Source: a virus. From it: a stretch of 57,074 nt of DNA. The notes beneath the pieces are model-generated. The model made no database searches. It worked only from the letters and a program-made list of their open reading frames with translations, and was not told the origin of the DNA. Shown here piece after piece: positions 801 to 40,871 of this stretch. The position numbers were made by a program, and so were the translations under genes. Positions within the stretch are counted from its first letter, which is position 1, and each line of letters begins with the position of its first letter. The stretch lies in the UHGV virus genome UHGV-2195224. One strand, 5' to 3'.

Positions 801-1229
801 TTTAAGCTGTGTGACGAAGTAACCACTCTTAACAGCATAACCAATTTTTTACGTACGTAAACTACTAAATGATATTTGTGAGAATGCCACCGAGTGTTCA
901 AAACACCACCACAAATACATAAGAAAACTTCAACAAATAACCAATGAATAATTTCCGATGTTATTTTTAGTTTGTTTAAATTAAGCTAAAGAATTATAGA
1001 GCGCTTATAAATAAGTGCCATTAATATAAATTAGCTAATAGATTTATTTTCGTTCAAACAAGAGCCATGAATAGGATTAGATAGAAAAGGTTCAGATAAA
1101 AATAGAGATCTACTTCACAAATTAAATGAGAAACTAAAACTTACATCTTGAAATAATCACATTGATTAGATGAATATTTATCGCGCAGTGACATCATTTT
1201 TTAATAATAGTTCAAAAAAAGGGCGTACA

Positions 1230-2312
1230 ATGAAAAAATTAACAGTGGCAATTTCTGCTGTAGCTGCATCAGTACTGATGGCGATGTCTGCTCAGGCAGC
1301 TGAAATTTATAATAAAGACAGTAACAAGCTGGATCTATACGGGAAAGTTAATGCCAAGCACTACTTCTCCTCTAATGATGCAGATGATGGTGATACTACT
1401 TATGCCCGTCTTGGCTTCAAAGGTGAAACCCAAATCAACGATCAACTGACTGGTTTCGGTCAGTGGGAATATGAATTCAAAGGCAACCGTGCTGAATCTC
1501 AAGGTTCTTCCAAAGACAAAACCCGTCTTGCATTTGCAGGCCTGAAATTTGGTGATTACGGCTCAATCGATTACGGCCGTAACTACGGTGTAGCATACGA
1601 CATCGGTGCGTGGACTGACGTTCTGCCAGAATTCGGTGGTGATACCTGGACCCAAACAGATGTGTTCATGACTGGTCGCACTACTGGTGTTGCAACTTAT
1701 CGTAACAACGACTTCTTTGGTCTGGTCGATGGCCTGAACTTTGCTGCTCAGTATCAGGGTAAAAATGACCGCACTGACGTAACTGAAGCCAATGGTGATG
1801 GTTTCGGTTTCTCCACTACTTATGAGTATGAAGGATTCGGCGTGGGTGCAACCTATGCTAAATCAGATCGCACTGACGGTCAGGTCGCCTATGGTAAGAG
1901 CAAATTCAATGCCTCCGGCAAAAATGCGGAAGTATGGGCTGCAGGCCTGAAATATGATGCGAACAATATCTATCTGGCTACCACATATTCTGAAACTCAG
2001 AATATGACCGTTTTTGGTAATAACCATATTGCAAACAAAGCACAAAACTTTGAAGCAGTAGCACAATATCAGTTTGACTTCGGTCTGCGCCCATCTGTTG
2101 CTTACCTTCAGTCAAAAGGTAAAGACCTTGGTGTTCATGGTGACCGAGACTTAGTCAAGTATGTCGATGTCGGTGCTACTTACTACTTTAATAAAAACAT
2201 GTCCACTTTTGTTGATTACAAAATCAACTTAATTGACGATAGTAAGTTTACCAAAACAGCTGGTATTGATACCGACGACATCGTCGCTGTAGGTCTGGTT
2301 TATCAGTTCTAA
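1230..2312 (+). CDS. nmpC: outer-membrane porin (NmpC/OmpD family), intact
   Basis: ORF with signal peptide [23 protein letters not shown] then [16 protein letters not shown]... and C-terminal ...AVGLVYQF typical of general porins; antisense between Q and the lysis genes as in DLP12. Confidence 0.85.
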
Positions 2313-2329
2313 TCTGACTTACGAAAAAG

Positions 2330-2364
2330 ATATGTTGCGGGAGGCTTTGCCTCCGCAACATATA
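2330..2364 (-). terminator. intrinsic terminator hairpin (T-tract on minus strand), just past the porin stop
   Basis: 15-bp stem atatgttgcgggaggc/gcctccgcaacatat with tttg loop; minus-strand T-run CTTTTTCGT follows. Confidence 0.45.
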
Positions 2365-2450
2365 AGTGGAGCCCTCAAGCCACTTCCTTTAGAAGCACTA
2401 CCTTGCTTCTTACTATATAAACCTTCTGTTATATATTACCCTTTATTTTG

Positions 2451-2476
2451 GGGGCGTTTCCACGCCCCATTTTTAA
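2451..2476 (+). terminator. intrinsic terminator downstream of the porin gene
   Basis: hairpin ggggcgtttccacgcccc followed by ATTTTTAA. Confidence 0.5.
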
Positions 2477-2500
2477 TAACTTTTAGTAAACAATTGCATA

Positions 2501-2884
2501 TCAATTAGAATTATTAGCAACGATATCCATATCTAACCGGATATCTAATGCCATTAACATCCCTTCAATTATGCCCTCAGCCTTCTGTAACCTTTTCCCG
2601 ATATAACCATCCGAGCAGCAATGCTTACTTGCCAGTGACATGAATGTCATACCACATACATAATAATCTACTAATAAATCGTGTAAATCGCTGTTGTTCT
2701 TTTTCAGACGGGCCATGCACCCGCAAATGATCATCGCGTCATCGTCACAACATTGCGGGCGAGATTTTACTTTTGAAGGAATTAATCCCTTAAAACCGGC
2801 AGCAATGGACGACCAGGTCACATCTTCATGATTATTAGCTGCCCACGCCCCCCAACGCTCAAGAACCATCTGAACATCACGCAT
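2501..2884 (-). CDS. quuD: late-gene antiterminator Q
   Basis: ORF ...[35 protein letters not shown]...[18 protein letters not shown]...; Q family; paralogous to 45643-46005; track ORF begins at an upstream TTG. Confidence 0.75.
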
Positions 2885-3106
2885 CAACTTACTCCACAAA
2901 AATTAGGCCAGAACGCCAATTACAAGCAAAAATCAACAAAACAGTATTAGTCGATTGTTATCTCTGACTTCATACACATGCTCCTTTCAGTGTTTTGGCG
3001 TAATTCTTCAGTATCCGGTAATCGGCCAAAACAGAACCAGGAAAACGATATAAGCGCAGGCGCATCCAGCGGTGGCGAAGACGTTCTGCCATATAAAACT
3101 CAAATA

Positions 3107-3469
3107 TCATTCATTCCCCATTTCGGTGATGGTCAGCTCCAGCTTCCCACCTTTGGTAACGGGCATCTTCACAACGCGGTAATCAACGACCTGAGCATCA
3201 TCCAGCCAGAAACCTGCTTTGGTGAGTGCGTCAAAAGCGGCCTTTTGCAGATTATCAAGGTCACGGCGACGGCGATCCGGCATGTGGCACTCAATGCTGA
3301 TTTTCACAGGAATAGCCAGGCCGATATCCAGCATTGCGTTTTTAATGATTCGGGCGACATTATCGCGGTATGCTTGCCCCTCTGCGCTGACGTGCGTGCG
3401 CCCACGATTATGGCGGTAATAGCGATTATTGCTCGGCGGCCAGGGTAGTGTGATATGGTAAGTATTCAC
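3107..3469 (-). CDS. rusA: Holliday-junction resolvase RusA
   Basis: 120-aa [46 protein letters not shown]...[25 protein letters not shown]. Confidence 0.9.
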
Positions 3470-3756
3470 GCCTTAATTACCCCCTCTTTCAGCCAGATAA
3501 CCTGCGTTCTCGCCATACCTTCCAGCGCGCATTCTTTTGCATATCCAGCGTCAACAAAATGCGTGCGACGGTCGATCTCGTCGTGACAGTCAGAACATGC
3601 AATGGTGGCAATAAGGTCTGGCGGTTTAATACCGGTGCCGCACAATCCAGCCAGCCGGATATGTGCCAGTACTGACGTTTCAGGATTGCCATTACATACG
3701 CCAGGGATTCTTACCTGGCATTCCCGACCACGTGCTGCTTTTCTCAAATCAGCCAT
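3466..3756 (-). CDS. ybcO: DLP12 YbcO-like protein (DUF1364, Cys/His-rich putative nuclease)
   Basis: From internal ATG: [37 protein letters not shown]...; 96 aa; overlaps rusA start. Confidence 0.8.
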
Positions 3757-3919
3757 GATTCCTCCTTGCTGCCAGTCGCAACCATTTTTTATCAACCAGG
3801 CTGGCGGTATATCCGAGCAGTGTTGGTATTTCGGATGGTTTCAGCTCAGGCTTACGCTTACGACGATTTGGTACTCTGTAGATGTGTCCGTTCATGACAC
3901 GAATAAGCGGTGTAGCCAT
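3749..3919 (-). CDS. ninE: NinE protein (56 aa)
   Basis: Not in ORF track (below 60 aa); minus-strand ATG at 3917-3919 gives [56 protein letters not shown]; stop overlaps ybcO start. Confidence 0.75.
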   Translation of the reverse strand: MATPLIRVMNGHIYRVPNRRKRKPELKPSEIPTLLGYTASLVDKKWLRLAARRNHG

Positions 3920-4374
3920 TACGCCTCCGGCTTGTCGCGCAGCAGCTGGAACTCGCAGCTCTGCGGAATAGTCAGGTGGCAGCCAATATTCACCGCCCAG
4001 GCTTCAACCTTACACAGGAAGACATACATCTCTCCGGTATCGAGATCGGAGGTATGGCGTAACGACTGGATAGTAGTGATTTCGCCGGTTACGACATCAA
4101 CCAGGTCCTTGGTTTCATAACCGAGGTATGTGTGTTTGAGAGCATCTTTTACCCATGCTGCGGTAGCGAACGATTTCCCCCTGCTGATGAGGTATTCACT
4201 GATTTCGCTGTACCACATGTGGCTGAGTGCATTCTGGGAAAGACTGCGTTTCTCACGCCACGGTTTAAGCACCATGCGAAAGCATTTTCCGTTCTCCAGA
4301 TAAGGCTGGATCTGCTGGCCGATAGCGATGAAGTTACCGCGATGCAGTTTGATGCCATCTTGTGGTAGGTTCAC
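3919..4374 (-). CDS. ybcN: DLP12 YbcN-like protein (151 aa)
   Basis: [65 protein letters not shown]...; first gene of the nin-region block. Confidence 0.8.
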
Positions 4375-4692
4375 GCTTCACCTCCACAGAGGTCAGACGC
4401 TGGATGCAAAAAAACGCAGGTGCATTTCTGCATCTGTGAAGGGAGAAGAGAGTTTGGATTGTGTGTGCGCATAAACGTCCCCGTTTAGCGCAGAAGTCAC
4501 CGGAGTTGTTCAGGCTCCGGTGATACAATTATGGCGAATTGATTATTCATAATCAAACAAGATAAGGTCTCAAACTTCATGCAAGCCAAGATTTATTTCT
4601 GACAGAATTATACAAAGAAGCTATTGGTCAGAATCTACTCGGACTGTAAAACATACGCATAACCTTAAGCTCTCACTTTAAGCATTGTTGAA

Positions 4693-4764
4693 ATAATAGC
4701 CGTCAAGTACAACCTTAACCACGACTGGGATATTTCCCTGGCTACCACGAGTTGTACGGCTATT
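4693..4764. repeat. imperfect inverted repeat (about 17-bp arms, about 40-nt spacer) upstream of the esterase gene
   Basis: aatagccgtcaagtacaacc ... gagttgtacggctatt. Confidence 0.35.
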
Positions 4765-4821
4765 AAACTGCCGTTAAATTCAGTAAGAGAATTTCATCCG
4801 ATAAGTCAAGGCATGTAAAAC

Positions 4822-5865
4822 ATGAAAATTAACAAGATATTATCATCTGCAACACTATTGTATGGTATGTCAATGGCCATGTCGGTCGGGAGTTGTGCAA
4901 CACCTGTCCAGACTAATCTTCCTGGTTACACCCCGGGTGCAGATATCATTAGTGTTTCACCGACCAGAAACCAGGTCGATCTCATTGGTGATGTTGTTTA
5001 TTCCCAGATAAAAGGAACTCGTTCTGTCAGACAGCTTCACATGTCAGTTCTTGTCCCGCGAACAAATGATTTAAAACCAGCCATTATTTATTATCCCGGC
5101 GGCGGATTCATGTCTTCTGAACATGACAAATTTATTGAAATGAGAATGGCTCTGGCAGAAGCTGGTTTTGTTGTGGCCGCTGTAGAATACAGAACAATTC
5201 CTGATACATTTCCAGCACCAGTTGAGGATGGAAAAGCTGCAATACGTTACCTGAGAGAGCATGCCAGCAATTATGGGATTGATCCTCAAAGAATCGGAGT
5301 TCTGGGTGACTCTGCCGGTGGATGGCTTGCTCAGATGATGGGAACTACAAATGGTGACAAAACCTTTGATAAAGGTGACTTTCTTCAGCAATCCTCAGAT
5401 GTTCAGGCAGTTGCCACACTTTATGGGATTTCTGACTTGTTGAATATTGGCGAGGGGTTCCCTGAATCAGTGCAGGAGGTTCATCGCTCTCCTGCCGTAA
5501 CCGAAGCCTTAATGATCAATGGCCCTGCATTCAGAAATTTTGCGGGAGCCCCCATCACAGCGTCAAAAGAAAAAGCGCTAAACGCCAGTCCAATCGGACA
5601 TATGAAAGGAGTAAAACCCCCATTTCTTATTATGCATGGTAGCAAAGACACTCTGGTTTCACCTGAGCAAAGCGCCAAACTATTCAGGATGTTGAAGAAG
5701 AACGGCGATAACGCTGAGTACGTTCTGGTAGAAGGGGCTGAGCATGGTGATAATACATGGTATCAGCCAATTATTATAAACAGAGTTGTTGAGTGGTTTA
5801 CTAAAAACCTGGGAACCCCCATAAAAACCGCTACCCAACAACAAAAAACAAACGCTGACCTGTAA
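4822..5865 (+). CDS. alpha/beta-hydrolase esterase/lipase, probable lipoprotein (HSL/family IV-like)
   Basis: 347-aa ORF; signal peptide ending in lipobox-like VGSC; HGGG-type motif YYPGGGF; nucleophile elbow GDSAGG; C-terminal EGAEHGD; antisense cargo between ybcN and ybcK. Confidence 0.75.
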   Translation: MKINKILSSATLLYGMSMAMSVGSCATPVQTNLPGYTPGADIISVSPTRNQVDLIGDVVYSQIKGTRSVRQLHMSVLVPRTNDLKPAIIYYPGGGFMSSEHDKFIEMRMALAEAGFVVAAVEYRTIPDTFPAPVEDGKAAIRYLREHASNYGIDPQRIGVLGDSAGGWLAQMMGTTNGDKTFDKGDFLQQSSDVQAVATLYGISDLLNIGEGFPESVQEVHRSPAVTEALMINGPAFRNFAGAPITASKEKALNASPIGHMKGVKPPFLIMHGSKDTLVSPEQSAKLFRMLKKNGDNAEYVLVEGAEHGDNTWYQPIIINRVVEWFTKNLGTPIKTATQQQKTNADL

Positions 5866-5870
5866 AAAGC

Positions 5871-5895
5871 AGCCCGCACTTATGCGGGCTAACCT
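5871..5895 (+). terminator. possible intrinsic terminator after the esterase gene
   Basis: hairpin agcccgcacttatgcgggct then weak T-tract. Confidence 0.35.
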
Positions 5896-6214
5896 ATTTC
5901 ACTCGATTCAAAAGAAATTATTTTTAATGGGGGCGTGACCAGCCTCTCGGTGCTCAGATACTTAATGAAGTGGAGTGGCATTCTGGCAGGAGGTTAACAT
6001 CACCTGTTCGCCATAACTAAGCACGTGCACAAAGTTTGTTATCAGTGAATTGTTTTGTGATTGGGTATTGTTGAGCTACTAGAGCGAGAATGCCAACATC
6101 CAGTGGCAGTGCCTATAGTAAAACTATAGCTCAGGGCGCTTCGTTCAAGATAGTTAATATCATAGTAGTTACTTTACTTTCATACCATAGCACGGTTGAA
6201 AAAGTGATTATTAC

Positions 6215-7741
6215 TCAAAAATAAATCTCACCATCAACCATATATTTAAGAGTGCTTATCGCCTGCTGGGCGGATATTACTTTCATTAAAGGATAGTGTT
6301 TAAAAACAATGCCATTCATAAAATAGATATCACAGGTTTTATTATCTGTATTAATTATAATTTTTTCGAATATTTTATAGGCAAGTGTACGACATAGCTC
6401 TCGCCCATTTTTACTAGTTAAATCAATAGCATGAAAATCACCAAGTGAACTCACCCCTTTACTCTTCAAAGTTTTTAATGATACCGAAGCCCTTCGTAAT
6501 TCCTTATCTAATAGTCTTATTTTCTCTGCTATAGCGGTAACTTCAGGCGCGACAGACAATGCAACGATTAAATTATTAATTTTCATCTGAAGCTCAATAA
6601 TTTTTAACTCTAAAGTTTCATTAGCATCTTTCTTGTTTTCAACTGGTTGAATTTTGCTACAATTAAAAAGCAATTCATTAATGATATTATAATCAACCAA
6701 ATCTCTTTTTATTGATGGCCTGTCACATCGATGTAATCTTCTCATCGGACAAACATAATAGCCATGCAAACGTCCAGATACCGCATGAACAATCATGGTA
6801 TTACCACAAGCCTCACACTTCATAACTGTTCGAAGTAGATTTATTAGCATAGGATTCTTGCTACTATTGCTAATACCAAAAGGTGCCAACCGAATTTCCT
6901 GTACAGCGTAAAACAAATCATCTGATATGACTCTGGGATAATAGCCAGCGATTTCACTTATCCCTTTCCCTCTTGCACGATATGAAGGTACGCATATACC
7001 TATCAGAGCTTTATTCGCTAATAATTTTTCAATTACAGAAGGCCCCCATGCACTTTCTTTTCCTGAAAAATTTTTTACAGCATGATCATTTAAATACTTA
7101 GCTATTGCATTCAATGATCGCCTTTCCATCCTGAGTTTAAAAATTAGCTCAATCGTTTTCACCCTGTCGGGGTCTGGAATAAAAGCTGTTCTTTTGTCAT
7201 CCAATGAGAGCCATCTCGGACAAGACGCCGTCATAATCGTGCCTGATTCCAGTGCATCCTGCCGTTTTTTCTTCCATGATAATTTAACCCGACTTGACTT
7301 TATCTCGCTTTCTTCATTTGCCCTTTGTGCTATAAGTATGGCTTTTATTAATGAATATGGCTCATTCAATGAGTCTATATTATAGACTGTATTATCGCAA
7401 AGAGTTATAACATCAATACCGTGATTCAAAATCAATTTCAGACGCTCAATCGCTTCACCGACTTTTTCTCTTGAAAGTCTGTCCAGACTTTCAACTAACA
7501 ATGTAGTCCCTGGCAATATGTAACCATGTTCTATAGCATCTAAAAATTCCGAAAAAGCTCCTGATTGTGCATGCTTTCCATTGAATGCGCTTAACCCCAA
7601 ATCTTCATACGTTACGGTATCAAGGTAATAATCACTATTTACCTTTAGCCATTCAGTAATAAGCCTTCTCTGGCGGTTTAATGAATCACCAGACATCTGA
7701 CCTGGTGATGAAAATCGCATATATGCTATGGCTTTTTTCAT
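6215..7741 (-). CDS. ybcK: large serine recombinase (DLP12 YbcK-like)
   Basis: 508-aa ORF MKKAIAYMRFSSPGQMSGDSLNRQRRLITEW...; N-terminal resolvase-type catalytic domain (RFSS serine), Cys-rich recombinase domain and C-terminal coiled coil. Confidence 0.85.
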   Translation of the reverse strand: MKKAIAYMRFSSPGQMSGDSLNRQRRLITEWLKVNSDYYLDTVTYEDLGLSAFNGKHAQSGAFSEFLDAIEHGYILPGTTLLVESLDRLSREKVGEAIERLKLILNHGIDVITLCDNTVYNIDSLNEPYSLIKAILIAQRANEESEIKSSRVKLSWKKKRQDALESGTIMTASCPRWLSLDDKRTAFIPDPDRVKTIELIFKLRMERRSLNAIAKYLNDHAVKNFSGKESAWGPSVIEKLLANKALIGICVPSYRARGKGISEIAGYYPRVISDDLFYAVQEIRLAPFGISNSSKNPMLINLLRTVMKCEACGNTMIVHAVSGRLHGYYVCPMRRLHRCDRPSIKRDLVDYNIINELLFNCSKIQPVENKKDANETLELKIIELQMKINNLIVALSVAPEVTAIAEKIRLLDKELRRASVSLKTLKSKGVSSLGDFHAIDLTSKNGRELCRTLAYKIFEKIIINTDNKTCDIYFMNGIVFKHYPLMKVISAQQAISTLKYMVDGEIYF

Positions 7742-7996
7742 GGTGACACCTGCTAAAGTATGCTTTTATAAACCTTAGTGGTGAGATATGATTTTTGTTT
7801 AATTTTTATTTAAAAAGACAATTAAGGTCACATTATCTTGAATATACAACAATAATCGTATTGCAATTTTCTTACACCATAATCTTGAAAGTTCAAAAGA
7901 ATGAATAAAAACTAAAGACATTAACAAAAAGCATAAAACGAGGCCCATACAAATATACGAACCTCCATATTTTAGTCGTTTAAAAATAAATTATTT

Positions 7997-8329
7997 TTAA
8001 TGTGGTGTGCTTCGTGACAATAAATTAATAACCAACACACCGGCACAAATCAACATCATGCCTATAATGGCTGGCAGGTCCAACCGTTGGCCGAAAAATC
8101 CCCATGATAGTATGCTAATCAGGACAATACCGACTCCTGACCAGATAGCATAAGCAATCCCTGTAGGTATATAAGCCAGCGTCTGAGCTAATAACCAGAA
8201 TGATGCACAATAACAAATAATTGTACCAACAGATGGCCATAACCGTGTAAAACCTTCTGAAAACTTCATTAAGGTTGTACCAATGACCTCTGCAAGTATT
8301 GCACCACCAAGATAAATATAAGGGTTCAT
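7997..8329 (-). CDS. emrE: SMR-family multidrug efflux transporter EmrE
   Basis: From internal ATG: MNPYIYLGGAILAEVIGTTLMKFSEGFTRLWPSVGTIICYCASFWLLAQTLAYIPTGIAYAIWSGVGIVLISILSWGFFGQRLDLPAIIGMMLICAGVLVINLLSRSTPH, 110 aa, four TM helices. Confidence 0.9.
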   Translation of the reverse strand: MNPYIYLGGAILAEVIGTTLMKFSEGFTRLWPSVGTIICYCASFWLLAQTLAYIPTGIAYAIWSGVGIVLISILSWGFFGQRLDLPAIIGMMLICAGVLVINLLSRSTPH

Positions 8330-8396
8330 AGCATATTCTTTCCTGTTCAAACTGGAGAGAATTGTACTACAGTTTGAACTCAACTCACCTGTTTCA

Positions 8397-8699
8397 TCAT
8401 TGTGTACCCATTGATGTTCTTTTATATACCCTCAATACCCGTTTCATCGCGGCACTCTGGCGACACTCCTTAAAAATCAAATTCGCGCTCACCTTTCCTT
8501 CCCGTTCTTCTCTGGTAGCGAACCGATAATACACCGTTCGCCAGACCTTACCATCAACGACCAGGATTCCTGCCCGCGCCATTTTAGCCGCAGCCTGATT
8601 TATGCTGGTTACGGTTGCGCCTGTTACCGCGGCAACGTCCTGCGCACAGAAGTTCTTATGAGTCCCCAGGTAATGAATAATTGCCTCTTTGCCCGTCAT
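8397..8699 (-). CDS. ren: Ren protein (lambda ren-like)
   Basis: ORF MTGKEAIIHYLGTHKNFCAQDVAAVTGATVTSINQAAAKMARAGILVVDGKVWRTVYYRFATREEREGK... Confidence 0.85.
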   Translation of the reverse strand: MTGKEAIIHYLGTHKNFCAQDVAAVTGATVTSINQAAAKMARAGILVVDGKVWRTVYYRFATREEREGKVSANLIFKECRQSAAMKRVLRVYKRTSMGTQ

Positions 8700-9397
8700 A
8701 CTCTTGCTCCTTTCAGCCCAAACTTAGCTTTGATTTCTGCGATCTTCGCCAGAGCCTGTGCACGATTTAGAGGTCTACCGCCCATGACAGGAATTTGTTT
8801 TACTGGTTCAGGTATAGCCTCACCACGGTTAATTCGCGCTGTCATACAGGTCAGTTCATCGGCAGCCTTGCGCCGTAATTCCGCGTCAGTCAGCGCATTG
8901 GCTCGCATGTTCTGATACAGGTTGGTAACCAACCAGTAATGCGCGTTTGATTTCCATGGATAAGACTCTGCATCCGGATAAAGGCCACGCTTCCGGCAAT
9001 ACTCGTAAACCATATCAACCAGCTCGCTGGCGTTTGGCAGCCCGGCGGTAACGGATGCTTCTTCCCGACACCAGGCAACAAACTGCCCGGGTGATGGCAG
9101 GAATGGTCGATTCTGCCGACGGGCTACGCGCATTCCTGCGTTAACCTGTTCCATTGTGGTGATCCCGTTTTCCCGGAAAGCCAGAACCCACTGGCGGCGG
9201 ATTTCGTTCAGTTCGTTCTGGTCCCGGTTAGCCAGACTCGCCGGGAAAGTTGCCAGTAACTGGCTGAACACACCGTTGATGATCTGCGCTACCTGCTGTA
9301 CCTGCGGCTTTTCGTCGTACTGTTCCGGCATGTTATTGGCGATCCGGCACATCTGCTCACGGTCAAAGTTAACCATCTGTGCGGCGATGTTTTTCAT
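8696..9397 (-). CDS. P: replication protein P (DnaB helicase loader, lambda P-like)
   Basis: 233-aa ORF MKNIAAQMVNFDREQMCRIANNMPEQYDEKPQVQQVAQIINGVFSQLLATFPASLANRDQNEL...; near-colinear with lambda P. Confidence 0.9.
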   Translation of the reverse strand: MKNIAAQMVNFDREQMCRIANNMPEQYDEKPQVQQVAQIINGVFSQLLATFPASLANRDQNELNEIRRQWVLAFRENGITTMEQVNAGMRVARRQNRPFLPSPGQFVAWCREEASVTAGLPNASELVDMVYEYCRKRGLYPDAESYPWKSNAHYWLVTNLYQNMRANALTDAELRRKAADELTCMTARINRGEAIPEPVKQIPVMGGRPLNRAQALAKIAEIKAKFGLKGARV

Positions 9398-10409: not shown

Positions 10410-10955
10410 TCATATTGCCCCCAGCATGGTGGTGACCATCGCCATCAGTGGACCAGCCAGATCCGGGTCCACACGAAACATCGACACAATGCCTTCACTC
10501 ATCTCCTTCAGTTTCTGGTGGCGTGGTGCGTTGAGAATGACAGCCTGTTTTGCCTCACTGAGTTCCTTTTCCATTTCAGCCAGCCGAGCCATGAAGCTAT
10601 CCTGCTCAACCAGGTGGCCGCGATATTCCAGCGGTAGTACCGCCAGAATTGCCGGGGTCAGTTCACGCACGTTATTTCGGTATTTTTCAGAATCGAATTT
10701 GTTATCGAGGAAGCGGAACAGCTTCTGGCGTGCACGGCTGACATCATCAGGGAAATCGATGGTGCCGCCGCCCTGCTCCCGATACTCATTCACAATGAGT
10801 GCGGCAACAACATCCTGATTATCTGCAGCCGACCAGGCGCGAACGGCATCACGGATTTTTTCGTGGCCTGGCGCCTGTTTTGTTTGAGAACGATTTATCA
10901 CCGCAGTCGGGCTAAATCCGCTAGTCTGTTGGTATGTAAGTGGTTGCATAGTCAT
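10410..10955 (-). CDS. phage regulatory protein in the cII position (CP76/CII-like family?), 181 aa
   Basis: ORF MTMQPLTYQQTSGFSPTAVINRSQTKQAPGHEKIRDAVRAW...; sits between cro and O on the early-right operon; family assignment from memory. Confidence 0.45.
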   Translation of the reverse strand: MTMQPLTYQQTSGFSPTAVINRSQTKQAPGHEKIRDAVRAWSAADNQDVVAALIVNEYREQGGGTIDFPDDVSRARQKLFRFLDNKFDSEKYRNNVRELTPAILAVLPLEYRGHLVEQDSFMARLAEMEKELSEAKQAVILNAPRHQKLKEMSEGIVSMFRVDPDLAGPLMAMVTTMLGAI

Positions 10956-10979
10956 TGCCTTATCAGTTAACGCCGCAGA

Positions 10980-11207
10980 TTAGGCGGCAGAATTACTCGC
11001 GTTAAACAATGGTGCGAGGTCGGGACGAATATCTGCTGGTTTAATCTTTCCACCAGTGGCTGAGACAATTTTCATTACATAGCGGGCATCAATTCCGCCA
11101 CCGTGTAGCCAACGCCAAACAGTGGGCTGGGCTACACCGCATAGATCTGCCAGTCGTTTTTGACTACCTGTAATACTGATTGCGAGTTGAATGGTTTGAT
11201 TTGTCAT
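10980..11207 (-). CDS. cro: Cro-like HTH repressor
   Basis: 75-aa ORF with HTH ...GSQKRLADLCGVAQPTVWRWLHGG...; divergent from cI across an operator-bearing gap. Confidence 0.7.
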   Translation of the reverse strand: MTNQTIQLAISITGSQKRLADLCGVAQPTVWRWLHGGGIDARYVMKIVSATGGKIKPADIRPDLAPLFNASNSAA

Positions 11208-11317
11208 TATTAATTCCTATTGGTATTACAATGAATAAATAATAGCAATGCGTATTAATCACAGCAATAGCAAAACGTGTTTTGACCATCAATACGCAAG
11301 CGTATAAATTAAAACTT
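11208..11317. promoter_or_regulatory. immunity switch region (OR operators, pR/pRM) between cro and cI
   Basis: 110-bp AT-rich divergent gap with repeated motifs taatagcaatgcgtatta / cagcaatagcaa / atcaatacgcaagcgtat; same CAATAGCAAT family recurs at 13055-13150. Confidence 0.5.
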
Positions 11318-12010
11318 ATGAAAAAAGAAACTCTTGCTGATCGCTTAAACCTAGCGATGGAACAATCTGGAATGTCTCAAGGCGCTCTTGCAAAGGCGTC
11401 TGGCGTAGCTCAACCCACAATCTGGAGACTGACAAGCGGCAACGCGCGCGGCTCAACAAAAATTGTTGAAATAGCTAATGCATTGGGTGTTCGAACAGAG
11501 TGGCTCTCATCAGGCATAGGCCCGATGAGAAATGACGGTCAACAATTAGGGAAGCCTACTGCCAACCATCCCAAATACTTCAAGATTGACGTTCTTGATA
11601 TAGAAGTGAGTGCCGGGCCGGGAGTCATCAACCGTGAGTTTGTAGAAGTTCTACGCTCGGTTGAGTACTCGTTTGACGATGCTCGTCACATGTTCGATGG
11701 TAGGAAGGCAGAAAATATCCGCATCATTAACGTACGCGGTGACAGCATGTCAGGAACGATTGAACCTGGTGATCTTCTGTTCGTTGATATCACGGTTAAA
11801 TCTTTCGACGGTGATGGCATCTATGCGTTTCTGTACGACGACACCGCCCATGTAAAGCGCCTGCAAATGATGAAGGATAAGCTGCTGGTTATCTCTGATA
11901 ACAAGAGCTACTCACCGTGGGACCCGATCGAGAAAGACGAGATGAACCGGGTGTTCATCTTCGGTAAGGTTATTGGGAGCATGCCCCAGACGTACAGGAA
12001 ACATGGATAA
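11318..12010 (+). CDS. cI: CI repressor (HTH plus LexA/S24-like autocleavage domain)
   Basis: From internal ATG: MKKETLADRLNLAMEQSGMSQGALAKASGVAQPTIWRL...; C-terminal S24 peptidase domain with GDSM serine motif; no SD before ATG, consistent with leaderless pRM mRNA. Confidence 0.85.
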   Translation: MKKETLADRLNLAMEQSGMSQGALAKASGVAQPTIWRLTSGNARGSTKIVEIANALGVRTEWLSSGIGPMRNDGQQLGKPTANHPKYFKIDVLDIEVSAGPGVINREFVEVLRSVEYSFDDARHMFDGRKAENIRIINVRGDSMSGTIEPGDLLFVDITVKSFDGDGIYAFLYDDTAHVKRLQMMKDKLLVISDNKSYSPWDPIEKDEMNRVFIFGKVIGSMPQTYRKHG

Positions 12011-12076
12011 TCAGTACTGTGCTGATGAGTCGTTTAGGGGATAGTAAATTTAATTAGAATTAGACGAGAGCGATTT

Positions 12077-12940
12077 ATGGATTGTGACGCTTTACAGGAT
12101 ATAAAAATCTCTCTTAGGTATGACGGAAAAGATGCTTTAAATCATGAAATAGATTTGAACTGCCTAGGAGAATCCCTAAAGGGTTTTTCTAAAGTTCTCT
12201 CAACAGCAGCTTCTTTCTCTGTTACACAAAAATATAGTAAATACATTAATTATCAGGAAGTTAAGGTTTACGCACGCGAAGCAAAAGCTAACTGCTTTAC
12301 TCTTGAAGCAGTTCTTAACTTCGCCACTCAGAACCAGTTGTTCTCGGGGATCGCCGCAACTATACTTGGCGCAATACTACAATATATTTTTGCGAGAAAT
12401 TCTAACAAGAAAGATGAAATGAAAGCTTTGCAGCAGTCACTTGAAAAGGCCATAGAGGCACTAGGAAACAAGGATGCTGGAACCATTGATAAGTTGATCT
12501 CTTTGATTGACCGAATGGCTGTAGAGCTTCGCCCCTCTGTAAGGCAGGCAGTATCACCTATTGGTAATACTTGCGATCAGATAAGTGTTGCAACAAATGT
12601 TGACGGCTGCCTTCTAAAAGTTAACGAGAGAGATAAAGCTGAAATTGATAGGCTTGATGATGATGAAGTTCTCGGTCTTCGTGAGTATCGTGCTTTTCTT
12701 ACAGAATTTGATGCACAAAATATGACAGCTAAAATAATTTTAGATGGTGATGACTCAAAAAAGAGAATCACTGCTGAAATTAGCGATCCAGCTGCAGGAA
12801 AGAAGAATAACCCGTATATTAGAGCTCTTAGTGCATATATATCAACCAAAGGTGATCCATCTGCAGTATTCACTATAACCGCAAAGGCTACTGTTAAAAA
12901 AGGCCAGATAAACAGGTTATTTATTGTAGATGCGAAATGA
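12077..12940 (+). CDS. uncharacterized 287-aa protein in the rexAB/sieB slot downstream of cI
   Basis: [39 protein letters not shown]...; one hydrophobic segment [19 protein letters not shown]; AT-rich; co-directional with cI and followed by a terminator. Confidence 0.6.
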
Positions 12941-12944
12941 TTTC

Positions 12945-12971
12945 CCCGGCCGTCGTGCCGGGTTTTCTTTT
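12945..12971 (+). terminator. intrinsic terminator ending the cI-cargo transcript
   Basis: stem cccggc/gccggg with 6-nt loop followed by TTTTCTTTT. Confidence 0.6.
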
Positions 12972-13054
12972 GCCTCCCCTCATCACATAAACCGTTCAAA
13001 AAACCACCACGACCTCGCTTCAGTTATCGCTATGCGATGCAAGTCACAAAATTA

Positions 13055-13150
13055 ATTCTTTTTGCTATCAAACAGTTAATATCAAAACACATCAATCAAT
13101 AGCAATAAGTATTGATATAGTCAATAGCAATAGCTATTATCACCATGTCG
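13055..13150. promoter_or_regulatory. putative OL/pL operator-promoter region
   Basis: palindromic motifs atcaatagcaataagtattgat and aatagctatt sharing the CAATAGCAAT core with the cro-cI gap. Confidence 0.4.
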
Positions 13151-13417
13151 CAACAACACAACGATACGGCAATCACCTGATTCACCGTTGCGATGACCGC
13201 TTAGATCCGCAGCTTGAATTTCAGCAGGCTCCGGGGAGTGCGAGGGGTGAAGCGGACGCGTGAACGTCGGTGTGACCAGCTGAAATCAACTCAACACCTC
13301 ATACCTCAGTCGCTTCAACGAGGCGGCTTAGTTATGACAACCGGCGGCCATCCACCGCCTGAATACGCGCAGAAGTCTCTATATGTTCAGCAGCCCAGCT
13401 TACGGGCAGGAGTTTTT

Positions 13418-13624
13418 ATGGTTCATCAACATTACGGAACGCAGACCGTTAATCGAGGTGCGGTCATGCCAGGAATGCTGGTCAAACACAAAGATGGTAC
13501 CTGGACTGCATCAGCTAATTTACGCGGACGGCTTTATCTGCATCGCGGCATCGAGCGCACTTATACCCGTGATTTGCTCGTGGAAGTTTTTCTCGACGGA
13601 CGCGGTAACGGCCTCAATCACTAA
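13418..13624 (+). CDS. small early-left-operon protein (68 aa), function unknown (Kil/cIII position)
   Basis: ATG at 13418 preceded by strong SD caggag; [44 protein letters not shown]...; the longer track ORF from 13214 begins at TTG. Confidence 0.35.
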
Positions 13625-13699
13625 TCCCCTTTCCTGTTTTCCTAATCAGCCGGGCATTTCGCGGGCGATATTTTCACAGCCATTTTCAGGAGTTCAGCC

Positions 13700-13996
13700 A
13701 TGAACGCTTATTACATTCAGGATCGTCTTGAGGCTCAGAGCTGGGCACGTCACTACCAGCAGATCGCCCGTGAAGAGAAAGAGGCAGAACTGGCAGACGA
13801 CATGGAAAAGGGTCTGTCCCAGCACCTGTTTGAATCACTCTGCATCGATCATTTGCAACGCCACGGGGCCAGCAAAAAAGCCATTACCCGTGCGTTTGAT
13901 GACGATGTTGAGTTTCAGGAGCGCATGGCAGAACACATCCGGTACATGGTTGAAACCATTGCTCACCATCAGGTTGATATTGATTCAGAGGTATAA
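13700..13996 (+). CDS. gam: Gam (RecBCD inhibitor), short GamS form
   Basis: 98-aa [63 protein letters not shown]...; in-frame stop upstream excludes the long form. Confidence 0.9.
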
Positions 13997-16842: not shown

Positions 16843-17079
16843 ATGTCTCGACTAATCACTTTACAGGACTGGGCTAAAGAAGAATTTGGGGACTTAGCAC
16901 CAAGTGAGCGAGTTCTGAAAAAATACGCGCAAGGGAAAATGATGGCCCCACCCGCTATAAAAGTTGGTCGCTACTGGATGATTGACCGAAATTCCCGTTT
17001 TGTAGGAACGCTTGCAGAACCGCAACTCCCAATAAACGCAAACCCAAAACTCCAACGGATAATCGCTGATGGCTGCTAG
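16843..17079 (+). CDS. xis: excisionase-like protein
   Basis: 78-aa ORF with strong SD aggagg, directly upstream of and overlapping int; homologous to 55721-55966. Confidence 0.6.
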   Translation: MSRLITLQDWAKEEFGDLAPSERVLKKYAQGKMMAPPAIKVGRYWMIDRNSRFVGTLAEPQLPINANPKLQRIIADGC

Positions 17080-18211
17080 ACCCCGATCTCACAAAATCTC
17101 TATACCCAATTTATATTGCAAATTAGATAAGCGAACCGGAAAGGTATATTGGCAATACAAACATCCACTATCCGGTCGTTTTCATAGCTTAGGAACTGAT
17201 GAGAATGAAGCAAAACAAGTTGCTACTGAAGCAAATATCATTATTGCTGAACAACGTACCCGACAAATATTAAGCGTCAATGAGCGTCTGGAAAGAATGA
17301 AAGGCAGGCGCTCAGACATTACGGTGACAGAATGGCTTGATAAATATATTTCTATCCAGGAGGACAGGCTGCAACATAATGAACTAAGACCCAACTCCTA
17401 TCGGCAAAAAGGCAAACCCATTCGTCTTTTCCGTGAGCATTGTGGAATGCAACACCTCAAGGATATTACCGCACTTGATATTGCCGAAATAATTGATGCT
17501 GTAAAGGCTGAAGGTCATAACAGGATGGCGCAAGTCGTGAGAATGGTGTTAATCGACGTCTTCAAAGAAGCACAACACGCAGGACATGTTCCGCCAGGAT
17601 TTAACCCAGCGCAGGCAACAAAACAACCGCGAAATCGAGTAAACCGCCAAAGATTATCACTGCCCGAATGGCAGGCAATATTTGACAGCGTAAGCAGACG
17701 GCAGCCCTATTTAAAATGTGGGATGCTACTTGCTCTTGTCACTGGACAACGTTTAGGCGATATCTGCAATTTGAAATTCTCTGATATCTGGGACGACATG
17801 TTGCACATTACTCAGGAAAAAACCGGTTCAAAACTTGCTATTCCGCTTAACCTGAAATGCGATGCTCTGAATATTACCCTTCGTGAAGTTATATCTCAGT
17901 GCAGGGATGCTGTTGTTAGTAAATATCTGGTCCATTACCGTCACACAACCTCTCAAGCAAACAGAGGAGACCAGGTTTCTGCGAATACTCTGACAACGGC
18001 TTTTAAAAAGGCCAGGGAAAAATGTGGCATAAAATGGGAGCAAGGAACTGCGCCCACATTTCATGAGCAGCGATCTCTGTCAGAACGGTTATATCGGGAA
18101 CAGGGTCTGGATACGCAAAAGTTGTTAGGCCATAAATCCAGAAAAATGACCGACCGATACAATGATGATCGTGGTAAAGACTGGATTATCGTAGATATCA
18201 AAACAGCATAG
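17069..18211 (+). CDS. int: tyrosine integrase (lambda Int family), icd-targeting type
   Basis: 380-aa ORF; catalytic-domain motifs ...LVTGQRLGDI..., ...HEQRSL..., ...LLGHKSRKMTDRY...; adjacent to the icd-derived att core; paralogous to 55947-57074. Confidence 0.9.
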   Translation: MAARPRSHKISIPNLYCKLDKRTGKVYWQYKHPLSGRFHSLGTDENEAKQVATEANIIIAEQRTRQILSVNERLERMKGRRSDITVTEWLDKYISIQEDRLQHNELRPNSYRQKGKPIRLFREHCGMQHLKDITALDIAEIIDAVKAEGHNRMAQVVRMVLIDVFKEAQHAGHVPPGFNPAQATKQPRNRVNRQRLSLPEWQAIFDSVSRRQPYLKCGMLLALVTGQRLGDICNLKFSDIWDDMLHITQEKTGSKLAIPLNLKCDALNITLREVISQCRDAVVSKYLVHYRHTTSQANRGDQVSANTLTTAFKKAREKCGIKWEQGTAPTFHEQRSLSERLYREQGLDTQKLLGHKSRKMTDRYNDDRGKDWIIVDIKTA

Positions 18212-29574: not shown

Positions 29575-31410
29575 TTACCTGCCAAAGCGCGTATAGCCAA
29601 CATCATGGCTGACATCAAAACCGCTGGATCGCGTTTCCATAACCCGCATACCCGGAGGCGAATTCACAAAAGAGACCTTGATCTCACCATCAACTTTTGG
29701 CGCAGAAGCTTTGTTAATCATGAAGGGATTCGGGCCTGTGGCATCGGAGGCGTTGTTTGACTGAGCCGGATCCACCGCCGGATAAGGTGTGTATCCCCGC
29801 GCCGGTATTCCCGTCCCATAAGCATCATAAGCACCCGCGCCCCACTGCGCAGAGTTAATGGCATCGACCGTGTCACCGGAACTGTCGGTAAACCACTCAA
29901 TAATTGGCTTCAGCTTGTCCCACATATCCTGAAACCACTTAACAACCGGCCCCCAGTTATTGATCACCATCCCCAGCGGCGACCAGGCAAAAACTTTCTT
30001 AAGGAGTTCCCAGCCGGCCTCAAAATAAGGACCAATGGTTTCCCAGAGTTTCTTAAAATAAGGTCCGACAACATCCCAGTTAGTGATAATTAATCCCGCA
30101 GCCAGGGCTATCGCCGTCGCAATCATGCCAATCGGCGTCATCGACATGATCCTGCTGACAATACTGATGGCACCGCCAACGCCCATCAATCCCAGTTTCA
30201 GAATCGCAAGACCGGCAGCAAGCCCGACGACGCCGCGAATAACCCGGGGATTTTCATCCGCAAACTTCGTGAATTTCTCCCCCAACTCCCCCAGCCATTG
30301 CGTGATATTTTTAGCGTCACCAGAAAATGCGCCGCCAATAGCTGCAAGACCGTTAGTTGCGGTCCCCGTCATTGCCTCCCACAGGTTGGACAGCGTACCA
30401 AGCTGTGCCTGAACACGTTTATTCAGGCTGGCCTGTTTATTCATCTTCTGCTGGATCTGATCGTAACCATCCTTCCCTTTATCGATCAGAGCATTGACCA
30501 CCTGAAGGGTTTCGGCATCATCACCAAATATTGCCTTAAGTACACCTGTTCGCTTAACGTCGGTCAGTTTTCGCAGCTTTGCCAGTTGCCTGAACATGTT
30601 ATCAAGACCGCCAAAACTCCCTTTGCCGTCAGTAAAATCGAGCTGCACTCCGAGTTTCTGGCGGGCCATAACTTTATTAACGTCCCTGATTTTCTTAACG
30701 CTTAATCCGGACTGGATAACTTTTCGCAGGGCATTACCTGCCGACTCCCCGTTCATCCCCATCTGATCCATCATGACGCTGATGGGGGCAAGGCTCTGTG
30801 CAGCCTGAAGACCATCCTTGTTCACCATCTTCAGAACAGAACTGGTTTTAGTGAAGAAGGACAACATGTTGGTATCGTCAACGCCCAGATAAAACGCCTT
30901 CTGGATAGTGTCGAACAGCCCCATCATGTCTTCTGACGCCGTTCCGGTAGCATCCTGCATCTTTGCAGCAAACTCAGCAGCCGCTTCCGGTGTTTTTTTC
31001 AGTTGTACCGCAAGATAGGCTGTCGCTTTACCCACACCACCCAGAATGTTTTCTGCCGGGATCCCCTGACGCACCAGCATCTGCATCATGTTCTGGAAAT
31101 CAGCCGTTGTACCGGGTAGCTGGTTACCCAGGCCAATAGCCAGTTTATTGATGTCCTGAAAGCGCTTTCCGACCTCACCGTTCGCATCCATCATGGCAAC
31201 TTTCAGCCCGGTGGCGGCGTTTTCCTGATCGGCATAAGATTTCAGGGAAAGCGTCAGACCCGCAGCCAGTCCGCCACCAAGCGCCAGCCCACCCTGTGAC
31301 GCTTCTTCCGCCTGGCGTTTAAATCCCCGGATTTTCTTTTGCATTTTCGACAGCGCGGGAGAAAGCCTGTCGACACCGGTGATCAACGCCTTAAGCTCAA
31401 ATTCAGCCAT
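29575..31410 (-). CDS. tail tape-measure protein
   Basis: 611-aa ORF with Ala/Gly-rich helical repeats and hydrophobic segments; between chaperone and baseplate genes. Confidence 0.8.
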   Translation of the reverse strand: MAEFELKALITGVDRLSPALSKMQKKIRGFKRQAEEASQGGLALGGGLAAGLTLSLKSYADQENAATGLKVAMMDANGEVGKRFQDINKLAIGLGNQLPGTTADFQNMMQMLVRQGIPAENILGGVGKATAYLAVQLKKTPEAAAEFAAKMQDATGTASEDMMGLFDTIQKAFYLGVDDTNMLSFFTKTSSVLKMVNKDGLQAAQSLAPISVMMDQMGMNGESAGNALRKVIQSGLSVKKIRDVNKVMARQKLGVQLDFTDGKGSFGGLDNMFRQLAKLRKLTDVKRTGVLKAIFGDDAETLQVVNALIDKGKDGYDQIQQKMNKQASLNKRVQAQLGTLSNLWEAMTGTATNGLAAIGGAFSGDAKNITQWLGELGEKFTKFADENPRVIRGVVGLAAGLAILKLGLMGVGGAISIVSRIMSMTPIGMIATAIALAAGLIITNWDVVGPYFKKLWETIGPYFEAGWELLKKVFAWSPLGMVINNWGPVVKWFQDMWDKLKPIIEWFTDSSGDTVDAINSAQWGAGAYDAYGTGIPARGYTPYPAVDPAQSNNASDATGPNPFMINKASAPKVDGEIKVSFVNSPPGMRVMETRSSGFDVSHDVGYTRFGR

Positions 31411-39137: not shown

Positions 39138-40871
39138 TTAAAGCGAGCGGATCCCATAGGACTCAATGTGGTCAGACAGCGTGTCTTCTTTCTCGTACAG
39201 CATGGCTCTGCCAACCGCCATAATCAGCGCAACTGCACCATCGATTTTGTTTTCCGCCTGCTCTTTGACGGGCTTCACCACATCATCGTTACCCGGAATG
39301 GTTTTGCCGACCACGTTGCCAATACACCAGGTCATGATGGGATTGCCATCATGATGAAAGCGCCCCGATTCAATTGCCGCTTCCAGCTCTTTCATCGGGT
39401 CGGACATGTTGGTGTAGTTCTGAATGATAGTGATGGGGTTCAGGTCTTCATCAGCAAGGTCATGTGACAACCCGGTCGCCCCGAAGGGGTCGATGGGTGA
39501 CTCACTGACCGGACTGATTTTGTTCGCCGCTTTGGCCTCCTCGAGGATGTAGCGATAATCCACCTCCGCACCATCGGTAACGGTCAGAACGCCCATTTCC
39601 ACCCATTTCTGAAAGCGTTCGGCTGTCCGGCGATCTTCATTTTTCTCGACGCTGTACACCGTGTCATACGGTACCCAGAAACGCGGGGCCACACTGTAGT
39701 AATGCGTTTTACCGTCAATCTCGCGGGTATAAAGTCGCGCCATGCTGTTCATATCCAGCTTACGCGCCAGGTCAAAGGCCAGAATGCACGGCTGCCCCTC
39801 GAACTGCTCAAGAGTCAGTGATTTATCCTCGCAGCTCTGCCAGCTCACCAGGTTGAAATACGCCGAACGCGCCGACACCCAGATATTGAGGTGTTTTGTT
39901 TTAAAGACGTTTGCCAGACGGGCGTTATTTTTCGCACGCTGCTGCTGACTTAACAAAAATTCGCGATAAACCGACACGCCAATATTCGGGTTAGCTTTTT
40001 CCAGCACCTGCGGGTCGGTCCAGTCATCGCCTTCGTCAACGGTATAGATGATCCCGAACAGTTCATCGTTGGGTACCGACCCGTTGAGCATCTCGATAAC
40101 TTCCCGTCGCTTGTCGTAGCACGGCCCCTCAATGTTGTACCCGGCAGTAGTAATGGCCCACATCAGTGGCTGACGTCGCGCCCCCATCCCGGTAAGCATC
40201 GTGGTGTAAAGCGCATCGGTGGCGTGCTCGTGATATTCATCCACCACCGCACAGTGGGGTGATGAACCATCACCGGGGTTACCGATCAGCGGTTCAAACC
40301 GCGCGCCATCCTCCGGACGATTCATGTTTGAGGCGTTAACCTCAATCCCGAACGCTTCCGTCAGCATGGGTGTGCGTTTACACATCAGTCGCGCCGGGCG
40401 AAAGACTTCCCACGCCTGTTTCTCTGTCGTGGCACCGGAATACACTTCCGCGCCAAACTCGTTATCACAGGCAAAACAATACAGGGCAACACCGGCAGAG
40501 ATTGCCGATTTGCCGTTCTTACGGGGGATTTCGGTATACACCTCCCGGAAGCGGCGCAGCCGGGACCCTTTATTGACCCAGCCAAACGCACAGCAGACCA
40601 CAAATAGCTGCCACGGCTCCAGCGTGATGGGCATCCTCTTGAATGCCCACTCACCCTTGGTGTGCGGCAACAGCTGAATAAATTTGGCGGCCCGTTCAGC
40701 CAGGTCCTTGTCGAAGCGGTAACGAAACGACTTACTTTTTTCCGCCATCAGGTCATCAAGATGGCGCTGGCAGGCCTGAATCACAAACTGGCAGGCCACA
40801 ATCTTTCCGCGCACAACATCACGGGCATACTGATTGGCAGCATTTACGTTGGGGTAAGATTTCCGGCTCAT
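39138..40871 (-). CDS. terminase large subunit
   Basis: 577-aa ORF with Walker A-like PRKNGKS and C-terminal nuclease domain. Confidence 0.9.

Follow-up and report, generated by a model that had tools for sequence, protein, structure and literature searches.

A candidate anti-phage defence gene of the DUF7946/DUF7947 family in the repressor operon of a Rac/lambda-like prophage remnant

We analysed a gene carried directly behind the repressor gene cI in the viral genome UHGV-2195224, a stretch of 57,074 nucleotides that we call the window and whose positions serve as coordinates throughout. The gene (12077-12940, + strand, ATG start) encodes a 287-amino-acid (aa) protein, WP_000340376.1, which is made up of the Pfam domains DUF7946 and DUF7947 and is a homologue of protein 40A of phage phi80. 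We find that the stretch between the cI stop codon and the cI operon terminator (12011-12944) is a sharply bounded cassette site of E. coli Rac/lambda-like prophages, and that this gene is one of its exchangeable occupants. On balance, we favour the view that the gene is lysogen-expressed anti-phage defence cargo belonging to a functionally uncharacterised family. To specialists the idea of a defence role will not come as a surprise. The family is already catalogued, and such a role for WP_000340376.1 has been predicted in print.

A cassette site between cI and its terminator

We searched complete E. coli genomes with window positions 10950-13450, examined five slot variants in detail, and counted cargos in 5426 complete E. 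coli genomes. Many E. coli prophages have cro, cI, OL and kil flanks that are 96-98% identical and differ in what they hold between cI and OL. The repressors of these five variants are the same or nearly so (WP_000712396.1 or WP_001295669.1) or represent a second allele, WP_000858975.1. Homology between the variants is lost directly after the cI stop codon and regained 0-5 bp before the stem of a common terminator, which places the cargo within the repressor transcription unit and makes the terminator part of the prophage backbone.

The DUF7946 gene itself is found at ≥99% identity in 77 of the 5426 genomes, always chromosomal and in single copy. The same slot can instead hold a HipA-family kinase with a DUF3037 protein (284 genomes), a PDC-M11-like pair of a 353-aa protein and an ASCH-domain protein (275 genomes), a PDC-M63-like pair of a DUF6932 protein and a 310-aa protein (98 genomes), or a cassette of a 132-aa protein, an MqsA-family antitoxin and SecB. 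RefSeq annotation suggests further occupants, namely a Ser/Thr kinase with RuvC and a BamE-like lipoprotein. The ‘empty’ slot of E. coli WP3-S18-ESBL-08 (1250-1400 of that locus) turned out to be a deletion scar, in which ~57 bp from the start and ~70 bp from the end of the PDC-M11-like ASCH cassette are left. An identical DUF7946 protein follows two cI alleles in E. coli, the second of which is accompanied by a different cro.

Several of these alternative cargos are defence systems or candidates for such systems. The HipA/DUF3037 pair, WP_000389051.1 and WP_000210934.1, carries the exact accessions of DS-6, since renamed HipAD, which was cloned and protects against phage; a kinase mutant in a predicted catalytic residue lost defence (PMC13092281). 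Three alternative cargos are matched by PADLOC on both of their genes, as PDC-M11A/B (E 3e-133 and 7e-52), PDC-M66A/B (E 6e-15 and 4e-16) and PDC-M63A/B (E 7e-43 and 2e-42). The cI-to-N region as a whole is known to be a mosaic hotspot, in which rexAB and bstA are found (PMC8585504). The initial annotation, made from the DNA letters and their translations, had assigned the gene to a rexAB-type slot behind cI, and the interval is indeed a cargo hotspot with one occupant, HipAD (DS-6), of validated defence function.

The layout of the operon agrees with such an insertion. The repressor gene (11318-12010, +; WP_000712396.1) encodes a helix-turn-helix (HTH) domain and a Peptidase_S24 domain (Pfam Peptidase_S24 E 1.5e-18, HTH_3 E 1.5e-6) and has its start in RefSeq at 11318 instead of the TTG at 11282. 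A pRM-like promoter, TTGACC-17-TAAATT (11282-11310, +), scored 9 of 12 in a consensus scan and is putatively assigned by its position; it would start transcription at about the cI ATG, so that, as in lambda, the cI mRNA would be leaderless. The stop codon of cI ends at 12010, and a 66-bp spacer (12011-12076, +) with a weak Shine-Dalgarno sequence, GAGAG, follows, so that the cargo open reading frame (ORF) begins 67 bp past the stop. A sequence scan of this spacer found no terminator or promoter-like site on the + strand, and its predicted RNA fold is unremarkable (z = -1.24).

Only 4 bp past the ORF stop codon lies the intrinsic terminator of the cI operon (12945-12971, +), with the stem-loop CCCGGC-CGTCGT-GCCGGG followed by TTTTCTTTTG and a fold of -17.7 kcal/mol (z = -3.2). 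It is present in all slot variants, including the ‘empty’ one, and is thus conserved prophage backbone and not the cargo gene's own. Beyond it is an OL-like operator cluster (13051-13146) with a pL-like promoter (13112-13140, +; 10 of 12 in the scan), which repeats motifs of the cro/cI intergenic region at 11209-11290. The clean terminator and the operator-rich region downstream had both been noticed in the initial annotation, as had the AT-rich 287-aa ORF running in the direction of cI from 67 bp after its stop, and our coordinates and GC content bear this description out. Its placement of the gene in the cI transcription unit likewise appears sound, given the common direction, the uninterrupted spacer and the shared terminator that precedes OL. 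Because the gene is inserted in the repressor operon, it would be made together with cI in a lysogen, presumably from pRM.

The ORF is compositionally foreign to its surroundings. Its GC content is 38.4% and its GC content at third codon positions (GC3) 0.295, compared with 0.48 and 0.39 for cI and 0.53 and 0.58 for bet; GC3 is 0.58 in neighbouring genes. This deviant GC3, along with presence, absence and replacement within one and the same backbone, is what is expected of a cargo gene, or ‘moron’. Comparison with an 87%-identical Erwinia homologue gave proportions of 0.086 for non-synonymous (pN) and 0.756 for synonymous differences (pS), or pN/pS ~0.11 with synonymous sites saturated, which points to a real gene under strong purifying selection and rules out a non-coding or decaying ORF. 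M1 and the rest of the N-terminus are conserved in 23 of 23 aligned homologues. RefSeq names the product of the identical region in strain ST70 a ‘DUF7946 domain-containing protein’, WP_000340376.1.

The association with repressors extends well outside E. coli. Genes for HTH/Peptidase_S24 or CI-type repressors are directly followed, in the same orientation, by homologues of 38-87% identity in Morganella (three prophages, among which two repressor/replication modules occur), Vitreoscilla, Neisseria, Mannheimia (three loci), an Enterobacter metagenome-assembled genome and Erwinia, and the homologues in Morganella, Vitreoscilla, Neisseria, Mannheimia and Erwinia follow unrelated repressors. An intrinsic terminator comes after the homologue in phi80, Morganella and Vitreoscilla, repeating the order of repressor, gene and terminator. 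In Erwinia sp. CGal63 (5188-5933 of that locus), a gene with a Tlde1 domain (E 1.4e-29) and a 71-aa hydrophobic ORF stand between repressor and homologue, and the locus looks like a multi-cargo repressor operon; Tlde1 is a type VI secretion toxin. In Vitreoscilla sp. C1 (6661-8274 of that locus), a 537-aa SIR2_2 protein is encoded just past the homologue and its terminator, likely a second defence gene in the same immunity region.

Other homologues have different neighbours. The Serratia homologue lies in an AlpA island beside an Abi_2 gene, and further copies are found behind the lysis genes at the end of a prophage, beside insertion sequence (IS) elements or integrases, and in a prophage record labelled Helicobacter pametensis. 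A plasmid search returned homologues on two Pantoea megaplasmids only. Judged by these sequence contexts, the distribution fits a mobile accessory gene expressed in lysogens and not a core part of one phage's regulatory circuit.

Protein family and predicted structure

WP_000340376.1 matches Pfam DUF7946 over residues 11-191 (E 3.8e-55, 187 bits) and DUF7947 over residues 201-287 (E 1.4e-18, 67 bits), with a cut-off of 27 bits in each case, and PHROG 5147 matches it from end to end (E 1.5e-178). It is thus a member of the family as we define it, a protein of ~270-300 aa with DUF7946 followed by DUF7947, both above the gathering score. The initial annotation had seen no recognisable motif and had proposed an undescribed family; neither statement holds, as remote-homology searches led to two Pfam domains of unassigned function, to PHROG 5147 and to gene 40A of phi80. 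The family is catalogued, and its function is unassigned in accessible sources; full-text searches returned nothing on DUF7946, DUF7947, PF25678, WP_000340376, AFV29182, PDC-S42 or phrog_5147.

A profile search of 1.84 billion representative proteins yielded 495 clusters at E≤1e-3. Full-length relatives are mostly 265-310 aa among the 150 clusters listed, and those of odd length keep the order DUF7946-DUF7947, with one exception in which only DUF7946 is matched. Close relatives come from Klebsiella, Enterobacter, Serratia, Raoultella, Citrobacter, Proteus/Morganella/Providencia, Neisseria and Vitreoscilla. A megablast of the gene against phage genomes gave no match, and phi80 was found at the protein level only. 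Searches of PDB sequences, with the single protein and with a 118-sequence profile, were also negative. Two other assignments could be discarded. PHROG holin profiles matched with E about 0.1 and covered the hydrophobic helix alone, and the NCBIfam model ‘LAPAL phage structural protein’ reached 26 bits against a cut-off of 60, for a gene located in an immunity region and not in a structural module.

AlphaFold produced a confident model once the alignment was broad enough: 23 sequences gave a predicted local distance difference test score (pLDDT) of 76, and 118 diverse sequences a pLDDT of 91.9 with a predicted template modelling score of 0.77. The N-terminal DUF7946 domain (aa 11-191; 12107-12649, +) is modelled as a strand (9-16), a long helix (27-50), a beta-hairpin (62-82) and a hydrophobic helix (87-108), then three more helices (112-128, 134-150 and 152-158), a second hairpin (168-182) and a helix at 184-192. 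It has no structural match in the PDB. The C-terminal DUF7947 domain (aa 201-287; 12677-12937, +) is predicted to be an oligonucleotide/oligosaccharide-binding fold (OB-fold), with a five-stranded beta-barrel and a capping helix in the modelled part 197-286. Most structural matches of this part are single-stranded DNA (ssDNA)-binding proteins of replication and recombination (RPA, PriB, SSB, MCM-N). Near-universal residues of the family are G17, S33, G36, P161 and G163 in the N-terminal domain and D237, P238 and Y247 in the C-terminal one, where K270 is present in 86%.

The single central hydrophobic segment picked out in the initial annotation corresponds to residues 88-106 (12338-12394, +), inside the model helix 87-108. 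It is rich in small residues, is followed by R/K, and has a Kyte-Doolittle mean of 1.85. A segment lies at the same position in all close homologues and is also present in most of the distant ones; the median for the family is 1.56, and about half of its members fall below 1.6.

Comparison with known systems

The closest known relative in the systems that we compared is protein 40A of phi80 (PHI80_46, AFV29182.1), with 62% identity over residues 1-285 of the window protein by tblastn. Gene 40A of the phi80 immunity region has been known since the 1980s. In phi80 it occupies the same slot, after cI and ahead of three OL operators and pL, and has the same orientation; its product falls into the same Pfam and PHROG families, and a similar GC-rich terminator hairpin lies directly past its stop codon. 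The two elements differ in that phi80 is a viable phage with N after pL, whereas that in the window is a defective Rac/lambda-like remnant. The phi80 GenBank record (JX871397.1; gene at 5001-5867 of the phi80 locus compared) labels the gene ‘acetate kinase superfamily domain’, for which the 62%-identical window protein has no Pfam match. In an older record, X13065, the gene appears as two, 40A and 40B, probably because of a frameshift in the early sequence.

Lambda rexA-rexB lies in the same slot between cI and OL, and for the window gene both co-transcription with cI and a logic leading from sensor to membrane effector are proposals only. We found no homology to Rex or SieB proteins. RexA (PF15969) gave no match at E≤1 and an hhalign probability of 0.2%, with lambda RexA as control at E 1e-97; RexB (PF15968) gave no Pfam match and a probability of 0.1% (lambda control E 8.5e-92); SieB (PF14163) gave no Pfam match and a probability of 0.15% (lambda control E 1e-29). 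The Rex system also consists of two proteins, whereas a single protein with one marginal hydrophobic helix is found here. RexB is a multi-pass membrane protein, and WP_000340376.1 has only one hydrophobic segment. Unlike the window protein, RexA is not known to have an OB-fold. Citing sieB as a precedent, as the initial annotation did alongside rexAB, was imprecise: in lambda, sieB lies beyond N and not between cI and OL.

BstA of the Salmonella prophage BTP1 is similar in arrangement. Like the window protein it is a single protein of ~300 aa, encoded directly downstream of a repressor and followed by a terminator, and its homologues are often found behind diverse repressors (PMC8585504). Identity with BstA was nevertheless rejected, as PADLOC gives PDC-S42 only and Pfam the two DUFs only, the predicted fold differs, and position is all that the proteins have in common. 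The database PADLOC-DB 2.0.0 includes a BstA model.

HipAD (DS-6) is an allelic occupant of the identical slot from cI stop to terminator, with the same flanks, in sister E. coli prophages. In sequence the two are unrelated, and HipAD comprises two genes and is kinase-based and toxin-antitoxin-like, whereas the window gene is single.

Proposed function and alternatives

A pointer to a defence role comes from an independent machine-learning study, DefensePredictor (Science 2026, PMC13092281), whose supplement lists WP_000340376.1 as a ‘Predicted novel defense gene’ without homology to known defence proteins. Its mean log-odds are 6.28 in one Table S5 genome and 7.45 in the pangenome set, with a cut-off of 4 (PMC13092281). 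Prophage defence cargo expressed with the repressor is a known kind of gene, and the window gene probably belongs to it.

For such a gene we infer transcription from pRM, a role in defence and all steps of the mechanism set out below. As a moron, it would have been acquired horizontally and inserted between the cI stop codon and the cI operon terminator. Most likely its product shields the lysogen from other phages, heteroimmune ones, and acts alone as a defence or exclusion factor of the family founded by phi80 protein 40A. We have low confidence in the mechanism that we propose. The OB-fold could recognise a phage-derived ligand, either a single-stranded nucleic acid or a phage protein. Ligand binding might then switch the N-terminal domain, so that the normally packed helix 88-106 would adopt a membrane-active or otherwise inhibitory state and infection would stop, a Rex-like logic in one polypeptide. 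Alternatively, the N-terminal domain may act by stoichiometric inhibition of a phage or host factor. In its strongest form, this would make the DUF7946/DUF7947 family, from phi80 40A to relatives in Pasteurellales and Neisseriales, a one-protein abortive-infection system with a new effector fold, a RexA/RexB analogue in which the OB-fold sensor detects a phage replication intermediate or protein and releases a buried helix that permeabilises the inner membrane; we regard this full version as distinctly unlikely.

How the helix is disposed bears on this mechanism. Across the family, K/R residues number ~2.4 after the hydrophobic helix and 1.0 before it, and by the positive-inside rule this bias suggests a cytoplasmic C-terminal part. 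Residues 1-190 form one domain in both Pfam and AlphaFold. A single-pass topology would require export of a charged 86-residue N-terminal domain that lacks a signal peptide. With this export problem, the one-domain N-terminal part and a helix of marginal hydrophobicity, a constitutive single-pass topology is doubtful, and a helix packed in the fold and possibly releasable seems at least as likely.

That topological difficulty is one of several points that weigh against a defence role, or against details of it. The low family median of the helix (1.56) makes the membrane step speculative. The best structural match of the OB domain is a metal chaperone, and OB-folds bind many kinds of ligand. 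WP_000340376.1 has no recognisable catalytic or effector motif of a known kind, and no other Pfam domain, hence no shuffling with defence modules, was found attached in the odd-length relatives. Some family members adjoin neither a repressor nor a recognisable defence gene. In PADLOC, the only match is to PDC-S42; it is weak (E 1.5e-4) and confined to the N-terminal part, where residues 9-127 align to positions 4-113 of 302, that is, to the N-terminal third of a profile that likewise represents a single protein of ~300 aa. This profile is matched by 56 of 118 family members, at best with E 3.2e-8, and PDC candidates are nominated through their embedding in known defence loci and are untested by definition. 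The accession, locus tag and contig of WP_000340376.1 are absent from the DefensePredictor tables of 118 tested units, so that in that work the gene was predicted and not tested; 45% of the 94 predicted units that were cloned were validated, at a rate that rose with log-odds (PMC13092281). The accessible texts contain neither phenotype nor transcript data for the window gene or for phi80 40A. Brenes and Laub reportedly published a functional screen of E. coli prophages in 2025. Finally, IS1A interrupts the DUF7946 gene in E. coli VG1046-3E9 (NZ_CP128594.1). IS1X4 or ISKpn26 interrupts the PDC-M11-like cassette in two other E. coli strains. Such insertions may mean that the cargo is costly, or just that it is decaying.

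The alternative that we rank next, and consider unlikely, is a role in lysogenic conversion or host fitness that has nothing to do with phages. Expressed together with cI, the protein would then change envelope physiology, stress tolerance or colonisation, and its OB-fold would bind a host ligand such as a metal or a sugar, as in SilF/CusF, YgiW or toxin B subunits. Prophage morons also encode virulence and fitness factors, an example being bstA, which was first linked to virulence phenotypes (PMC8585504), and the slot itself has the BamE-like lipoprotein as an annotated occupant. However, SilF, YgiW and toxin B subunits are exported, whereas the window protein has neither a signal peptide nor a lipobox. 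The other occupants of the slot are mainly defence or toxin-antitoxin-like, one of them validated, and the DefensePredictor score is well above the cut-off.

A part in the prophage's own life cycle, such as repressor stability, induction, replication or recombination, for example through ssDNA binding by the OB-fold, seems improbable. The tight coupling to repressors across Enterobacterales, Pasteurellales and Neisseriales would be accounted for, as would the preponderance of ssDNA-binding replication and recombination proteins among the OB-fold matches. Yet the gene is dispensable and interchangeable, as the same cI allele occurs with other cargo or with none, and it accompanies unrelated repressors and replication modules. 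Family members are also found away from any repressor, and the gene has been kept in a defective prophage without late genes.

Least probable by our estimate is a selfish or addictive membrane-active toxin, expressed at a low level, that stabilises the prophage remnant without anti-phage benefit: the hydrophobic helix, the toxin-antitoxin-type cargo of the slot (the HipA-like kinase pair and the MqsA-family/SecB cassette) and the IS insertions in the DUF7946 gene and a neighbouring cargo type would fit, but in E. coli, phi80, Morganella and Vitreoscilla the gene stands alone and is not paired with an antitoxin, and long-term purifying selection across genera points to a selected function and not only to addiction.

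If the gene is indeed defence cargo, a widespread single-gene family, with ~500 clusters at 50% identity in several orders of Proteobacteria, would join the known prophage defences, and an orphan gene of the classical phi80 immunity region would gain a function. Four cargo types at the site between cI stop and terminator are validated or predicted defence systems, which makes it a place to mine for further candidates.

Other features of the window

On the other side of cI, a cro-like HTH gene (10980-11207, -) diverges from the repressor gene; RefSeq calls its product a ‘helix-turn-helix domain-containing protein’ in the identical ST70 region. Between cro and cI lies the OR-like operator cluster (11209-11290), which has the repeats D1, D4 and I1 in common with 13051-13146 and contains AATAGCAAT-type motifs. 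The window has four exact AATAGCAAT copies, of which three fall in the OR-like and OL-like clusters.

The leftward early operon begins with a gene for a kil-like cell-division inhibitor (13416-13622, +), which flanks the slot on the side away from cI; its coordinates were transferred from the RefSeq record of the identical ST70 region with an offset of 4076. Between the pL-like promoter and kil (13141-13415) there is no N-like ORF, and phi80 has N at the equivalent place. The fold of this 270-nt leader is unremarkable (z = -0.91). Rfam searches covering the entire window, together with a permissive scan of 12900-13700, returned only sub-threshold chance matches.

The lambdoid element is truncated beyond gene P (8696-9397, -), where a large serine recombinase (6215-7741, -), an alpha/beta hydrolase (4822-5865) and a porin (1170-2312) follow. 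No nin, Q, lysis or structural genes were found on the P side (window 1170-9397), and because of this truncation we consider the immunity and cargo module to have been retained in a defective prophage. Strain ST70 has an inverse autotransporter beyond P instead. The other end of the remnant is marked by a lambda-type integrase (17069-18211), beyond which ST70 has tRNA-Arg and fimZ; a tRNA scan found none in the whole window. In the window the integrase is instead followed by a second prophage-like region (18900-43500), with genes for a tape-measure protein (29575-31410) and a large terminase (39138-40871). At the cII position lies a gene of the YdaT_toxin family (10410-10955, -; E 7.6e-30), as in Rac, and its phi80 counterpart is annotated cII.

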